Positions 114 to 18,341 of a stretch of 24,000 bases of DNA are shown piece after piece (within the stretch, counting starts at the first letter, position 1; every line of letters begins with the position of its first letter). The DNA is taken from positions 88,578 through 112,577 of the forward strand of contig JAPNVD010000007.1 of NCBI GenBank assembly GCA_026627305.1, in the 5' to 3' direction. The notes under the pieces are model-generated. The model saw only the letters and a program-made list of their open reading frames with translations, was not told where the DNA came from and did no database searches. Source of the DNA: Sulfolobaceae archaeon. Lineage in GTDB: Archaea; Thermoproteota; Thermoprotei_A; Sulfolobales; Sulfolobaceae. Both the position numbers and the translations under genes were made by a program.

Positions 114-1373
114 TTAACTCTTAATATTTCTTCCTAACTTTTTATGTGCCTTTCCTAATTCTCTATTGGCTAAAGCAGAGAGAAGATTTAACTCACCTGC
201 AAGTACAGCGGCAGCAATAATTTCGGCGAATTTCTTACTATTGCTACCCGGAGGACTACCAGGACCATAAACACCTAATATTTCTAAAGCCTCTCTCTGA
301 GTAGGTAATCTTGTACCCCCACCTACTGTGCCTACTTCTAATGACGTTAATGTGACAGATATGTATAAATCATTACCCCTAACCTCAGTCCACGTATAAC
401 CGCTGCTGCTCTCTACAACTTGAGCTACATCCTGACCTGTAGCTATAAATATTGCAGTTACAATGTTAGCAAAATGAGCATTAAACTGAAACATTGTTCC
501 TGCCCTAGCACCACCGAGCCAATTCTTACGTAAATTAACATCATGAATCAAAGCTGCGTCACTCTTTAAAACGTTCTTTATAACGCTTTCTGGTATTAAA
601 GCTTCAGCGACAACTGTTTTACCCCTACCATGAAGGCTATTTATACTAGATTGCTTTTTGTCGCTACACATATTACCGCTAACAGCAACACAATCAGCAT
701 AAGGATAGTTCTTCTCGATATAATCGCACACACTTTCAACCGCAATAGTTACCATATTCATCCCCATAGCGTCTCCAGTCTCAAAGACAAATCTTAACCA
801 AACGTTGTTACCTAATACGAAAGGCTCAATATCTTTGAGCTTCCCATGACTAGTAGTACCTTCAGCTACTTCTTTAATCTTCTCGTAATTTTGATTAACC
901 CAGTTTAGAAAATCTGTAACTCTGGTAATACTATCTAGTTTAAAAACTGGAGCTCTGGCCATTCCATCAAAAATTATCTTTACATTAGCACCTCCGCTTA
1001 ATGTAATAGCTTTAGCTCCTCTATTTACGCTAGCTATTAAAGCTCCTTCTGTAGTAGCTAATGGAACATAAAACTCTCCCTTAGCATAGTCTCCATTGAC
1101 TTTTAATGGCCCCACTATCCCTAAAGGAATTTGCGTACCTCCTATAACGTTCTCAGCATTTCTATTTTTGATTTCAGAGTAATCTATTATAGTTGAGCCT
1201 ATAGCAGGTAGCTTAACGTTTAATATTTTTTCCAGAGCTTGCCTCCTAGCAACTACAGCAGCGTTTGCCTCTAATAAATCATCAACTCTGTGGAATTCTA
1301 TTTCCTTCTTTACTAGTTTCTCTACTATTTCGTCTATATTATTGACCTTCTGCTGGTCTGAATTTAACTCCAT
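114..1373 (-). CDS. hmgA: HMG-CoA reductase, class I (archaeal)
   Basis: 419-aa ORF with the class I HMGR motifs [13 protein letters not shown] and GTVGGGT, and a C-terminal LGKAH. It is the last gene of the mevalonate operon. Confidence 0.95.
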
Positions 1374-1752
1374 AGACTATCAATCCGTTAGATGAGTCTG
1401 ACCTCAATTTCCTTAAAGTTGCCTTTACTCTAATACCTTCCTTAATATTAGATTCGTTTACATCAGTTAGAGGAGCTACAATTGTAAATCCTTCGTCTAG
1501 CCTTATTATACCTACATACATTGGCAAGACTTTTTCAAACCCTTCTCTAGCCTGATAACTTACAGTATAGTCTATTAATGTACCCTCTCCCGAAAGTTTT
1601 ATAGACTTTACGTTAGTGGATCCACATTTTGAACATATTTGCTGATATGGAAAAGTTATGTTACCACAATCTTCACACTTTGCTGCAATAAGGTTGTATA
1701 AGCTGTCTTTTATTCTCCAAACCGAAGGAGGAGCTATTTTCATGATTTTCAC
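1339..1752 (-). CDS. DUF35 family Zn-ribbon/OB-fold protein (scaffold subunit of the archaeal thiolase/HMG-CoA synthase complex)
   Basis: 137 aa with a four-Cys ribbon ([20 protein letters not shown]) followed by a beta-rich OB-like region. Its start makes a 4-bp overlap with the stop of the upstream thiolase-like gene. Its 3' end overlaps the hmgA start by 35 nt. The HMGS/thiolase/DUF35 gene order is typical of archaea. Confidence 0.85.
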
Positions 1753-2855
1753 CTCCTAACATATACTAAATATGCGGATCTGGAAAGATCATCAGTGGAT
1801 AAAACAAATCCTCTTTCCGCACCTGATACTCTCTTTCCTTTGAACTCTCCCACAAGTTGTTGATGAACTTCAGCTAACTGATAAACACCAGTAGCACCGC
1901 CAGGATATCCTCTAGCTTTAAGACCTCCACTATAGTTAATGGGTATCAACGAATCTAATGACTTCAGCGATTTGCCGTATTCCGCTAGACCTAATTCCTC
2001 CAATTGTAACGCTGCCATAATACTATAAGAATCATGGATCTCAGCGAGCTCAGCCTGCTTTAAGAGATCCTTAGCTTCAAGACCTATGGATCTAACTGCA
2101 GGTAATCCTGGCACAAAATCTATATCAGAAGAGGAACCTGTAACGTATTCTATTTTACTATATTCATCAGAGATCTTACTAGAAATTTCATCAGTTGCCA
2201 AATAAACTGCTGCTGCTCCATCACCTCTAGCGCCTATATCAAACAATCTCAAGGGTTCTGCAATGACTTGAGAAGAAATTATTGCATTCATATTTGCGGG
2301 GAATCTCAAGTATGCATATGGATTTTCAACAGCATTAGAATGCATAGCTATACTCCAATTGGCGAAGTAGGAATAGTCAACATTATACTTCTTCATATAA
2401 GCCTTCATGAGGAGTGCAGCATATACATGTGGTACTAGCCCACTTTGGTATGAGTATTCCTCATCTAAATTATATGAAAGCGCTTCATTAAGGTACTTAG
2501 ATGGATAATCACTCAATTTCTCAACACCCAAGATCAAAGCAGTTTTTGCTATACCCGCTTTTAACAATGAGTATGCAGTAAATATTGCACTACCGCCGCT
2601 ACCATCACCCGCTTCTACTCTTAATGCTGTAGATGTTAGGCCTAAATATGTTGCCAGTTTACCAGCTAATACAAGTTGATGATTTACCGCTTCACCATAA
2701 GCATTAGCAACTAATACTACATCAGGCTTAACGAACTCCTTAAGTTTAGATTTCAACTCTTGTACAACTGCCACTGCTAAATCTCTTAATCCTAAGTTAT
2801 AGTGCCTATCAATCTTATACATTGATGAACCTACTACACGAACCTCAACCATCAT
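1749..2855 (-). CDS. thiolase-superfamily protein (SCP2/archaeal acetoacetyl-CoA thiolase-like) lacking all cysteines; probably non-catalytic
   Basis: 368 aa with thiolase-like blocks [34 protein letters not shown] and [17 protein letters not shown]. There is no Cys anywhere in the protein. It has 4-bp overlaps with both neighbours. Confidence 0.8.
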
Positions 2856-3898
2856 TCATACACCTTCATCTTATTTGTATTCTTTGCGTAAGTTGCATAA
2901 CTCACAACTATCTTATTTGAGATATAATAATCTGTAGTTGGCGCTAACTTCTGCCTTTCCTCTATCTTATCGGTTGTTACAACACTAAACGCATCGCTGC
3001 CTGCGCCACTACCGAAAGGTGCTACAAGTATACGTTGATTTGGTTTTGCAACATCAAGTACTTTAGCTAAGCCTAATAATGCAGAGGCGTTGTAAGGATT
3101 ACCGATAAGAGGAGATACTAACCCTTGTTTGACTTTCTCAAGAGGAACTCCTAGCTTTTTAGCCACTTGTAACGGGAATTTGCCATTGGGTTGATGAAAC
3201 ACAAAATAATCAAAATCTGAAATCTTATACCCTCCATTCTCTAGAAGAAGTTTAACGGCAGAAATTATGTGATCGAAGTAAGCAGGCTCCCCTGTGAATC
3301 CTTCACCATGAACTGGATATGGCATACCGTCCCTCCTCCAGAAGTCCGGAGTGTCAGAAGTATAAGAAGTTGAAGCCTCTATTAACGCTGAAGCCTCGCT
3401 TTCAGGACCTATAATGTACGCAACTGCAGCAGCTGCCGAGCTAAGCTCTAAGACATCTCCCGGATTTGACTGTGCAGTATCTGAACCTATTATCAATCCA
3501 TAACTTATTCTATTGGCTTCTACCATTGAAGCGCCTAACCTCAATCCCGCTGAAGCAGCCCTGCATGCAAATTCTAAATCAGCACCTAAACTAGCATTAG
3601 TTATACCTAAGGCATCTATTAATATTGTAGCTGTTGGCTTTACCGCATAAACTTTAGACTCAGAGCCGAAGAGAACCAAGTTTATCTTACTTGGATCTAT
3701 TTTAGCCCTCTTTAACGCGTTGACTGAAGCCTCCCAAGCCATTGTCGTAGAGTCTTCATCAGGACCTGGTACGGATTTCTCGGTTAGCCCTAAACTATTA
3801 ACGGTAGTTGTTTCAATACCCCAGTTTCTTGCTATATCCTCCACCTTTATTCTATACCTGGGTACGTAAGAACCCCAACCAATTATACCAGCTTTCAT
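2852..3898 (-). CDS. HMG-CoA synthase (archaeal type)
   Basis: Condensing-enzyme motifs are retained: the nucleophile in [19 protein letters not shown], and [13 protein letters not shown] place the start at ATG 3898 ([11 protein letters not shown]), not the TTG at 3922 used by the ORF track, because a TTTAAAT box at 3922-3928 is centred ~27 nt upstream of ATG 3898. Confidence 0.9.
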
Positions 3899-3921
3899 TC
3901 CAGTTCTTATATATGGAAGCA

Positions 3922-3928
3922 ATTTAAA
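3922..3928 (-). promoter_or_regulatory. TATA box of the mevalonate operon (leaderless HMGS mRNA)
   Basis: The minus strand reads TTTAAAT, 24-30 nt upstream of ATG 3898. Confidence 0.5.
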
Positions 3929-4539: not shown

Positions 4540-5442
4540 ATGTCAAAATTATCACTAGCCCTGGCAGGAATATTCATACTACTAATAATAATTGCTGGAC
4601 TATTTATAGCTGAAAATCTTGCATCACATCTTTCAATGAAAATCTACTCGCTTACTGTACTTTTATCGGGAAATGGTTCAGGAAATGTTATTCTTGAATT
4701 TAAAGGAACAGTTAATAATGGCGTCTTACCAAATAACTACACAATACTATTTTTAGCAGAGTTATCTAATGTTACACAATCTAAGACCTCGATACAATCA
4801 AAGCTAATTTATGTTTCAAACTATACATTTGTATATACAAAATCCTTTCAAACTAAAAACTTCTCCATTTACCTCGAAATACCTAAAGACGAATTAATCA
4901 GCGTAGATTTAAAGACTGGAACAGTGTCTATAAATCTAATAGGATTGGAGTATAGCGTTAGTGGACTTTACGGATATCATTTTCATGTTAATCTCAACAA
5001 CCTAGTTGGATTTCTTGATAATCAAATTTACTCACTAATCCTTGAAACCTCTAGTCCAAAAGAACCAAGTGCTACATATCAACTTATGGTTAATGATATC
5101 CCTTACAGTAATCTTAATCCAAACTTATTATCTCCTGCGTTTTATGCCTATGTGACAGTTAAGGGCTTAGAGTATTTCTTCTCTAACAACTCTGCACAGC
5201 TTATTCTAAGTTTTAACATGTATAAAGCATTACCAGCGAGTGATACTTTATACCTAAATTATGGACCCCATAATATTAGTATAGAACTGAACAACAAACT
5301 TATAGAACAGCAAGTGATGAACATAAATCCTAAGGAGTTAAATTACAGTCTAGCCTTTCAACTACCGATAAATATATCTAACCTAACAATACTAGTTTAT
5401 CAAAACTCAACAAGCTACTACTATCTGTACTACTCACTTTAA
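4540..5442 (+). CDS. hypothetical membrane-anchored extracellular protein, N-glycosylation-sequon rich
   Basis: 300 aa with an N-terminal hydrophobic anchor (LSLALAGIFILLIIIAGLFIA). I count 11 N-x-S/T sequons. The composition is rich in Ser, Asn, Tyr and Leu, and I recognise no enzymatic motif. A back-to-back TATA-like pair (4468-4475 minus, 4484-4490 plus) lies in the divergent intergenic region. Confidence 0.6.
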   Translation: MSKLSLALAGIFILLIIIAGLFIAENLASHLSMKIYSLTVLLSGNGSGNVILEFKGTVNNGVLPNNYTILFLAELSNVTQSKTSIQSKLIYVSNYTFVYTKSFQTKNFSIYLEIPKDELISVDLKTGTVSINLIGLEYSVSGLYGYHFHVNLNNLVGFLDNQIYSLILETSSPKEPSATYQLMVNDIPYSNLNPNLLSPAFYAYVTVKGLEYFFSNNSAQLILSFNMYKALPASDTLYLNYGPHNISIELNNKLIEQQVMNINPKELNYSLAFQLPINISNLTILVYQNSTSYYYLYYSL

Positions 5443-12413: not shown

Positions 12414-12809
12414 TCACTTTACCCTGACTATTTTCTTTTTATCCATAATTGTCCAATATTCTATTTCAGCACCCACTCTTATCTTAGATAACAAATCCTC
12501 TTCTTTAGGTTTCTCCATCTCAAAAGTTTCATAACTTTCTAAATCCATTACCTGCAATTTATCTCCCATATCTGCCAATATCTGTCCAACATGTTTCTCA
12601 ATAATCGGCACTTCTACCTTTTGATCTACAGGTGCCATAAGGGTTTTCTTATTACCAGTAAATACACCGATAGCTACAACATTAGCCTTAGCGCTTCCAT
12701 GTTTACCAGTTTTTGCCTTGCTTATTTCAACAACACGGCATGGTTCTCCATCAATTACAATATAACTACCTACTTTTAACTCTCCAACAGTAGTGTACTG
12801 AATGCTCAT
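12414..12809 (-). CDS. eif5a: translation initiation factor 5A (aIF5A), hypusine-containing
   Basis: 131 aa with the hypusination loop [15 protein letters not shown]. Its stop is 1 nt from the SRP54 start. Confidence 0.95.

Positions 12810-15951: not shown

Positions 15952-18341
<2,390 letters not shown>

Follow-up and report, generated by a model that had tools for sequence, protein, structure and literature searches.

A thiolase-fold protein without thiolase catalytic residues in the mevalonate operon of Sulfolobales, a candidate non-catalytic subunit of the thiolase/HMGCS/DUF35 complex

The stretch of DNA analysed here, called the window below, covers 24,000 nucleotides from the genome assembly of a Sulfolobaceae archaeon (GCA_026627305.1, contig JAPNVD010000007.1, positions 88,578 to 112,577). 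Its minus strand carries four closely packed genes in the order HMG-CoA synthase (HMGCS), thiolase-like protein, DUF35 protein and HMG-CoA reductase (HMGR). The HMGCS is of the archaeal type (2852..3922; the listed open reading frame (ORF) starts at TTG 3922). It is followed by the gene that concerns us most, which lies at 1749..2855 and encodes a 368-residue thiolase-fold protein of the SCP2/archaeal ACAT type, without the thiolase catalytic residues. Next come a DUF35 protein with a Cys4 zinc ribbon and an OB fold (1339..1752, listed start GTG 1752) and an HMGR of 419 residues (114..1373; Pfam HMG-CoA_red, 6e-136). The thiolase-like protein occupies the place of the thiolase in a conserved HMGCS - thiolase - DUF35 (- HMGR) operon, with the fold retained. 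A preliminary reading of the letters alone, below the sequence-only reading, had proposed that this protein is a catalytically dead homologue, retained as a structural subunit.

The thiolase-like ORF runs from an ATG start to a TGA stop and its translation is full length and free of cysteine, as had been claimed. Residue-level phmmer alignments were made with three solved homologues, namely the thiolase of the Methanothermococcus thermolithotrophicus complex (6esq_A), the Pyrococcus furiosus thiolase PFC_04095 (7yvy_A) and ST0096 (4yzo_A). In these alignments Asp84 (codon 2604..2606, minus strand) falls in line with the nucleophilic Cys of the CxS motif, which is Cys85 in the M. thermolithotrophicus thiolase, Ser276 aligns with the x of HDxF, and Tyr317 (1905..1907, minus strand) with the His of the GHP motif. 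MAFFT alignments with 120 homologues and with ~70 operon-linked homologues gave the same columns, and put S353, D355 and D356 at the positions of the C-terminal N-x-G-G loop (Ser353-Thr354-Asp355-Asp356, codons 1788..1799, minus strand). The columns, including the replaced C-terminal block, are those that the sequence-only reading had named. The consensus that it had given also agrees with the Cys-type operon thiolases, which show RVEAACASGG, EVHDCFT, GGLKA.GHPVGATG and HNVGGSGAT.

The nucleophile column holds Asp in 98% of 44 Sulfolobales sequences versus Cys in 100% of the Cys-type operon copies. The His that Tyr317 replaces in the GHx motif is present in 43/43 Cys-type copies. Of the Cys-type copies 90% have Asn at position 353, and 100% have Gly at position 355. 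At the HDxF position (codons 2025..2036, minus strand) His274 and Asp275 are retained in the motif HDSY; where 44/44 Cys-type copies have the Phe of HDxF, the window protein has Tyr. Ser276 had been read as the loss of an acid/base Cys. The substitution is there, but not all active archaeal thiolases have a Cys at this position: the motif reads HDAF in P. furiosus 7yvy and in 13 of the Cys-type copies from operons. The residue that is essential in the methanogen complex is the His of HDxF (H284A; PMC12960953), and its counterpart in the window, His274, is kept.

The sequence-only reading had also put the total absence of Cys to the fore. This is not unusual here: 7 of the 19 other genes in the window lack Cys as well, and at the local Cys frequency of 0.4% the probability of finding none in 368 residues is ~0.22. 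Zero Cys is therefore uninformative by itself, and only the catalytic columns count.

The protein is nevertheless recognisable as a thiolase in fold. Pfam matches lie above their cut-offs (Thiolase_C_1, 3e-15; Thiolase_N, 2.5e-8), and an AlphaFold2 (AF2) model built from a 54-sequence alignment is confident (pLDDT 94.8, pTM 0.94). The top Foldseek match of this model is 6et9_C, the thiolase chain of the methanogen complex (TMq 0.91, root-mean-square deviation 2.3 Å). However, the protein fails the NCBIfam equivalog model of the methanogen thiolase (NF053570 AcCoTHIOL_METTL, 154.4 bits against a cut-off of 600) and the subfamily PRK06064 (227 against 420 bits). With no nucleophile Cys, no GHP His and a rewritten oxyanion loop, the protein is predicted to be one that cannot carry out canonical thiolase chemistry.

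The same substitutions are found throughout the Sulfolobales, and in other archaeal lineages that are described below. A multiple alignment of ~45 orthologues was drawn from Acidianus, Metallosphaera, Sulfurisphaera, Stygiolobus, Sulfolobus, Saccharolobus, Sulfuracidifex and metagenome-assembled genomes (MAGs). All share G-D at the Cys column, HDSYS, RGYP and S.DDL, with RGH replacing the RGYP pattern in S. solfataricus and S. islandicus. The gene was found in every Sulfolobales examined. The closest relative is a MAG (GCA_037444425.1) with ~98% amino-acid identity over the operon; in the named genera the thiolase-like protein is 46-53% and HMGCS 71-79% identical to the window proteins (73% for the HMGCS of the Metallosphaera locus L010). 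Gene order is also shared. AdoMet decarboxylase (AdoMetDC) - HMGCS - thiolase-like - DUF35 - HMGR - serine hydroxymethyltransferase (SHMT) is present, whole or to the contig limit, in L009, L010, L093 and L094, and HMGCS - thiolase-like - DUF35 - HMGR in L001, L013 and L014. Between the window and L009 the ratio dN/dS is 0.04 for the thiolase-like gene, next to 0.03 for HMGCS, 0.04 for DUF35 and 0.03 for HMGR. The thiolase-like gene is under strong purifying selection.

These results bear on a further explanation, in which the locus would be an artefact of sequencing or assembly, or a pseudogene in decay. In its favour, some S. acidocaldarius entries of the orthologue are corrupted by adapter sequence or frameshifted at the 3′ end. 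That said, the explanation is refuted, because the same substitutions and synteny recur across the Sulfolobales: the frame is full length, ~45 independent genomes and MAGs carry it, dN/dS is low and the AF2 model is confident. Furthermore, the S. solfataricus orthologue, SSO0534, was abundant by mass spectrometry (PMC6105217). The sequence-only reading had itself raised the artefact as a way of being wrong, and the orthologues together with dN/dS dispose of it.

The S. acidocaldarius entries deserve a short description of their own. In P0037, P0045 and P0046 some 20-30 native residues have given way to peptides such as CLLYTSPSP, RQRQMCIRD, SLIHISEPTRP and GDVYKRQ. These resemble a translation of Nextera/Tn5 adapter and point to assembly contamination and not to real variants. 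We considered whether the shortened S. acidocaldarius entries are a sign of dispensability and rejected this, as three of them are adapter-contaminated assemblies. In a further S. acidocaldarius genome (L094:3520-3600; CP046615.1, GCA_028472365.1) the orthologue is called at 345 residues because of a 1-nt frameshift after ...NAEK, beyond which the last ~20 residues (GIILSNDDLGNTSYLAVLSR) are encoded in a different frame. A true mutation of the strain could explain this, as could a sequencing error in the homopolymer A-run GAAAAGG.

The partner proteins present a different picture from the thiolase-like protein. HMGCS matches 6esq_I, its counterpart in the methanogen complex, with an E-value of 6.5e-107, and clears two NCBIfam equivalog cut-offs (542 against 244 and 449 against 353 bits). 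Its Glu88, Cys120, His243 and Asn275 align onto E82, C114, H238 and N270 of 6esq_I, so that the E-C-H-N tetrad, as defined in PMC12960953, is intact; the Cys and His motifs that the sequence-only reading had seen in this protein are confirmed. The DUF35 protein is free-standing, with 134-137 residues, keeps its four Cys and matches the Pfam families OB_ChsH2_C (1e-15) and zf-ChsH2 (9e-7). Its best PDB match is 6esq_E, the DUF35 chain of the methanogen complex (3.3e-22).

Overlaps of 4 bp had been proposed at both ends of the thiolase-like gene. The junction with HMGCS is indeed a true ATGA overlap, as read from the sequence. The GTGA overlap with DUF35, however, requires a GTG start for DUF35. 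An alternative start, ATG 1743, lies five nt past the stop of the thiolase-like gene, behind GGAGGTGA, a Shine-Dalgarno-like sequence within the 3′ end of that gene (1749..1756, minus strand; 5 nt upstream of the ATG). Gene callers picked the equivalent ATG in L009 and L093, and DUF35 more likely starts at ATG 1743 than at GTG 1752. For HMGCS, the L093 orthologue begins MKASIVGWG and the true start is probably ATG 3898 (Met9) rather than TTG 3922. Downstream, the HMGR start, ATG 1373, sits 35 nt within the 3′ end of DUF35. The corresponding overlaps elsewhere are 35 nt in L009, 26 nt in L093, 17 nt in L094 and 14 nt in the Metallosphaera locus L010.

The natural reference for this operon is the M. 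thermolithotrophicus complex (6ESQ/6ET9). The same three genes occur in the same order, and each of the window proteins finds its best solved relative there, in the case of the thiolase-like protein by structural comparison. The likeness extends to residues, since HMGCS keeps its tetrad, DUF35 its Cys4 ribbon and OB fold, and the thiolase-like protein its fold and the His-Asp pair. The differences concern this last protein: Cys85 has become Asp and the GHP His Tyr, HDCF reads HDSY, and N-x-G-G reads S-T-D-D. As these catalytic residues are replaced, channelled conversion of acetyl-CoA to HMG-CoA by the published methanogen mechanism would be impossible.

In order to see how far the Cys-less state extends, we looked beyond the Sulfolobales. 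A first scan of genome contigs with the thiolase-like protein gave 8 loci and was biased by the IHDSYSIM pattern; because of this bias towards HDSY the survey was repeated, anchored on HMGCS. The HMGCS-anchored scan of metagenomes (profile A1) gave 80 loci, with a scorable adjacent thiolase in 60. Cys was present in 43/60 and absent from 17/60, where it is replaced by Gly (6), Asp (5), Glu (3), Asn (2) or Ser (1); the resulting 28% is not a global frequency, because the sample leans to relatives of the profile. HMGCS - thiolase - DUF35 is the rule in these metagenome loci, and more than 60 related loci have this order. The same order, with thiolase-like in second place and with genes overlapping or abutting, was found in each Cys-less lineage examined.

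Cys-less copies fall at at least five separate positions in the neighbour-joining (NJ) tree of HMGCS and likewise in that of the thiolase. These are a large TACK-like clade (Sulfolobales together with an Acidilobales/Desulfurococcales-type 'Glu' clade), the group L052/L075/L091, the Heimdallarchaeota, L062 and L063. The residues differ between them. For example, Zestosphaera has Glu at the Cys column and YDTY, Candidatus Heimdallarchaeum endolithica has Asn, HDSH and GDP, and the Heimdallarchaeota/Promethearchaeati loci (L003-L006, L008, L097) have an HMGCS-adjacent thiolase with Asn, HDSY(P) and GDP. A Thaumarchaeota locus (L007) has Gly, HDSYS and GYP; its contig begins inside the thiolase-like gene, so that just thiolase-like - DUF35 is visible. 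One Thermoproteota genome of the first scan has Asp at the Cys column, and Pyrofollis japonicus has a normal Cys/HDAF/GHP copy. The Cys-less state thus extends to Asgard and ammonia-oxidiser lineages, where, to judge by the residues present, Cys-dependent condensation by this subunit is excluded.

The best match in Ignisphaera was of another kind. In Ignisphaera aggregans (L012, P0091) a Cys-type thiolase (AAC/HDAF/GHP) is paired with DUF35, and no HMGCS gene lies beside it. Not all Thermoprotei, then, have the operon.

The gene orders above also bear on whether the thiolase-like protein belongs to an HMGCS complex at all. It might instead work with DUF35 only, or alone, binding acyl-CoA or a lipid, and its linkage to HMGCS would then be historical. 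The Ignisphaera pair fits this explanation, several Sulfolobales thiolase/DUF35 pairs act without HMGCS (bioRxiv 10.1101/2024.07.05.601840), and thiolase-like binders of CoA esters without a catalytic Cys exist, e.g. TbSLP. However, the order HMGCS - thiolase-like - DUF35 is kept over very long distances in the Cys-less lineages examined, and all three window proteins best match three chains of one solved complex. Furthermore, a passage of PMC12960953 that cites Vogeli 2018 reports archaeal HMGS to be inactive, and ACAT insoluble, when expressed alone. We hold a role outside the complex to be extremely unlikely.

A comparison of Cys-less with Cys-type copies suggests that the catalytic residues decay together. 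The GHP His, kept in 43/43 Cys-type copies, is replaced in 17/25 Cys-less copies, and the HDxF Phe, kept in 44/44, is replaced in 23/27. The replacing residues vary by lineage, with D, E, N, G, Q or S at the nucleophile column and Y, H, D, N or F at the GHP column. Conservation in Cys-type copies reaches 90% or more at ~84 positions, of which only 33 have kept the same residue as a conserved one in the Sulfolobales.

The rates tell a similar story. In pairs of loci the thiolase/HMGCS identity ratio is 0.9-1.0 if both thiolases have the Cys and 0.6-0.75 if both lack it. Expressed as divergence, the ratio is 1.4-2.3 within six Cys-less clades versus 1.05-1.11 for Cys-Cys pairs, and the thiolase-like protein of the window evolves at about twice the rate of its HMGCS. 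The window and L093 illustrate this at close range, with amino-acid identities of 91.7% for HMGCS, 87.1% for HMGR, 85.5% for DUF35 and 78.7% for the thiolase-like protein. Constraint on the Cys-less protein therefore appears relaxed relative to its Cys-bearing orthologues. Recurrent loss, joint decay of the residues and faster divergence together mean that the data fit a retained non-catalytic subunit.

These data can also be set against the idea that the protein still forms acetoacetyl-CoA by a non-canonical mechanism, with Asp84 acting as general base or forming an acyl-anhydride instead of the Cys thioester, and with channelling from acetyl-CoA to HMG-CoA preserved. In favour of this, the gene has kept its place in the operon and its tight translational coupling, the protein still has the HD dyad, and a carboxylate (Asp or Glu) stands at the nucleophile column in both the Sulfolobales and the Acidilobales/Desulfurococcales-type clade. 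Related Cys-less lineages, however, have Gly or Asn there, which are incapable of the role given to Asp, and the second catalytic His and the oxyanion loop are replaced too. The characterised thiolases in the literature examined all use a Cys acyl-enzyme. The rate acceleration and the loss of 51 of the ~84 conserved ancestral positions argue that the ancestral constraint has gone. Together these points make this mechanism very unlikely.

Our preferred explanation, which we hold with moderate confidence, is that this protein is orthologous to the acetoacetyl-CoA thiolase subunit in the archaeal thiolase/HMGCS/DUF35 complex, that it has lost Cys-dependent thiolase chemistry, and that it is kept as an obligatory non-catalytic subunit. 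It would still assemble with HMGCS and DUF35 and would hold this assembly and its CoA chamber together, and HMGCS would draw acetoacetyl-CoA from the free pool instead of from a channelled reaction of its partner. Asp84, Tyr277, Tyr317 and Asp355 may stabilise or close the vestigial pocket, steering the pantetheine arm to the HMGCS site. All three proteins contribute to the CoA site of the methanogen complex (PMC6392133), and PMC12960953 describes a shared CoA chamber. With a chamber built from three proteins and an HMGS that is reported inactive alone, the subunit could not be discarded once its own catalysis had become dispensable. The free acetoacetyl-CoA would stem from other beta-ketothiolases or from the 3-hydroxypropionate/4-hydroxybutyrate cycle. 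Msed_0656 and Saci_1121/1120 are among the Sulfolobales ketothiolases assayed as active in the literature, and acetoacetyl-CoA is produced in the Sulfolobales cycle (PMC7078158).

Since acetoacetyl-CoA is an intermediate of 4-hydroxybutyrate CO2-fixation cycles, we asked whether loss of the Cys tracks these cycles. As a general rule this is unsupported. The idea fits the Sulfolobales and one Thaumarchaeota genome, but fails for the Cys-less copies of Acidilobus and Zestosphaera and for the Cys-type copies of Pyrofollis and Pyrodictium. Acidilobus and Zestosphaera are heterotrophs.

There is a precedent for one dead subunit in a tripartite assembly. The bacterial complexes PhlACB (PpATase), MucABC (SmaATase) and PfACAT/HMGS-DUF35, the last from P. 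fluorescens (PMC12960953), each keep a dead subunit for assembly (PMC6392133, PMC12960953). In these it is the HMGS-like subunit that is dead and the ACAT, with its Cys and His, that is active, whereas in the window this is reversed. The bacterial complexes have also left the mevalonate pathway, whereas the genes in the window adjoin HMGR. A more distant parallel is found among ketosynthases (KS), where KSQ and the chain-length factors have Gln in place of Cys and act as a decarboxylase or as a non-condensing partner. As here, a Cys-less subunit of the thiolase superfamily is kept beside an active homologue; the family is KS and not SCP2-thiolase, the residue Gln and not Asp, and the substrates are bound to acyl carrier protein.

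A number of points weigh against a non-catalytic subunit. The His and Asp of HDxF are retained, and the His is the essential catalytic one of the methanogen enzyme. The replacement residues D84, S276, Y277, S278, Y317, S353 and D355 are 93-100% conserved in the Sulfolobales, and 25 further clade-specific positions, many of them Tyr, are conserved there too. HDSY appears in Cys-less lineages that lie apart in both trees (the TACK-like clade, the Heimdallarchaeota and L063). A second thiolase, as a source of acetoacetyl-CoA, was not found within the window. Finally, the trees are NJ trees without support values, and the metagenome sample favours relatives of an HMGCS profile that was built from lineages with Cys-less partners.

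Several of these points would suit a neofunctionalised enzyme, the main rival explanation, which we regard as possible though unlikely. Here a CoA thioester in the shared chamber would be the target of non-covalent acid-base chemistry in a remodelled pocket (Asp84, His274, Asp275, Tyr277, Tyr317, Asp355/356). Candidate reactions are the enolisation or decarboxylation of malonyl-CoA, or an aldol or retro-aldol step as in Ltp2 and Sal. HMGCS would still have its substrate supplied or processed by the complex, through a reaction distinct from Cys-dependent Claisen condensation. The strict conservation in the Sulfolobales of the substituted residues and the 25 further positions supports this explanation, as do the dN/dS of 0.04, the recurrence of HDSY in independent Cys-less lineages and the retention of His274/Asp275 and of the GGLK.RG loop. 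That said, the role of the conserved bulky and acidic residues could just as well be to stabilise a vestigial pocket or to plug it.

The precedents for such an enzyme are Ltp2 (6OK1), Sal (9MYR) and TbSLP (5AB4-7), which have the SCP2-thiolase fold without the nucleophilic Cys, and on which the AF2 model superposes at TMq 0.78-0.86. Ltp2 and Sal are enzymes that work bound to a DUF35 domain (PMC12329534). Ltp2 has Y294DHF and Tyr344, Sal has YDCY and a Gly at the nucleophile, and TbSLP has YDCF and is a weak malonyl-CoA decarboxylase (PMC12329534). Tyr344 is the general acid of Ltp2, and window Tyr317 probably corresponds to it. This correspondence is drawn from the end coordinates only of the 6ok1_A alignments (326 to 353, 325 to 352), which put Tyr317 opposite 344 if chain numbering equals residue numbering.

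However, similarity to Ltp2 in sequence is weak (E 2e-4 to 6ok1) and the two are not orthologues. The Tyr that defines Ltp2, Sal and SLP (YDxF) takes the place of the HDxF His, and the window protein has His274 instead. The known systems have a MaoC hydratase partner and steroid-CoA substrates, whereas the DUF35 protein of the window is free-standing and neither a hydratase nor any other new partner gene was found in the operon. Other evidence against neofunctionalisation comes from the family as a whole. The Cys-less lineages share no common new catalytic set, with residues at the nucleophile and GHP columns that vary, and the protein evolves faster than HMGCS in all six Cys-less clades. Among the HMGCS sequences no column shifts consistently with Cys-less partners in the manner of a compensatory change. 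As a more specific form of the idea, the Cys-less subunit might be a rebuilt active site, made of the pocket residues named above, which are all essentially invariant in the Sulfolobales, with cysteine-independent acid-base chemistry. It would feed HMGCS by an activation of the decarboxylative or enolate-forming kind, or run an aldol reaction like that of Ltp2; this we judge distinctly improbable.

The sequence-only reading had spoken of a retained pseudoenzyme. The loss of canonical chemistry and the keeping of the gene are both borne out; that the subunit is dead, rather than changed in its chemistry, is no more than probable.

Position 109 of HMGCS (3596-3598 in the window) is the sole column with any association to the Cys state of the thiolase. 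It is Pro in 86% of the Cys-type partners, non-Pro in 6/10 Cys-less clades and Asn in the window.

ST0096 (PDB 4YZO, from Sulfurisphaera tokodaii) is a useful reminder that the Sulfolobales hold more than one such family. It is the top PDB match of the thiolase-like protein by sequence (5.9e-43), and has Ser at the nucleophile column (NTSGSGG) and HDMA. It is a paralogue at ~29% identity and not the operon orthologue, and it keeps the GHP His, whereas the operon orthologues of the S. tokodaii group are ~50% identical to the window protein and show G-D/HDSYS/GYP. Proteins of the ST0096 type are thus a second Sulfolobales thiolase-fold family without the nucleophilic Cys, with a structure solved. 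The literature search returned no function or publication for ST0096.

The rest of the window, with a GC content of ~36% overall, holds genes for AdoMet decarboxylase, SRP54, aIF5A, deoxyhypusine synthase, topoisomerase VI A and B, RtcB, an Lhr helicase and a type IA topoisomerase, which are ordinary Sulfolobales housekeeping genes. An ORF of 300 residues on the plus strand (4540-5442), rich in Asn, Ser and Tyr and with an N-terminal hydrophobic segment, has no Pfam match. It diverges upstream of the AdoMetDC-HMGCS cluster, and L093 has a Pfam-less gene of 300 residues at the same place. The genes for aIF5A and deoxyhypusine synthase (12414-12809 and 15952-16893) lie ~10 kb from the operon. 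In S. solfataricus the thiolase-like orthologue SSO0534 was an abundant co-purifier in an aIF5A pull-down, and in the control too (PMC6105217); its presence there probably reflects abundance and not a specific interaction.

In a literature search that did not extend to Vogeli 2018, no account of a Cys-less thiolase from the archaeal mevalonate operon came up. What comes closest is the observation that the CH motif is missing from many 'other AACT homologs' of archaea (PMC6107057). Recent papers present the tripartite thiolase/HMGCS/DUF35 complex as a general archaeal route past the unfavourable first step of isoprenoid lipid synthesis (PMC12960953; bioRxiv 10.1101/2024.07.05.601840). Msed_1647 and SSO0534 are listed as thiolases in the literature, and SSO0534 is annotated as acetyl-CoA C-acetyltransferase (AcaB-1) and serves as a candidate ketothiolase in reconstructions.

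Judged by its catalytic columns, the operon 'thiolase' of the Sulfolobales, the main crenarchaeal models, cannot be a thiolase. By the same evidence this is also true of the operon thiolase in named genomes and MAGs of the Acidilobales/Desulfurococcales, Thaumarchaeota and Heimdallarchaeota. The clade-wide and recurrent loss across archaea is a more interesting result than the single case from which we started. Pathway models and automated annotation need correction. Archaea with a Cys-less operon probably enter isoprenoid lipid synthesis in a way unlike the textbook scheme, and the source of acetoacetyl-CoA for their membrane lipids becomes a directly testable question. If the rebuilt active site proved true, the Sulfolobales, and perhaps other HDSY-type TACK and Asgard lineages, would enter the mevalonate pathway by an undescribed reaction. 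The family itself offers a natural series of independent transitions from enzyme to pseudoenzyme within one complex, the mirror image of PhlACB and MucABC.

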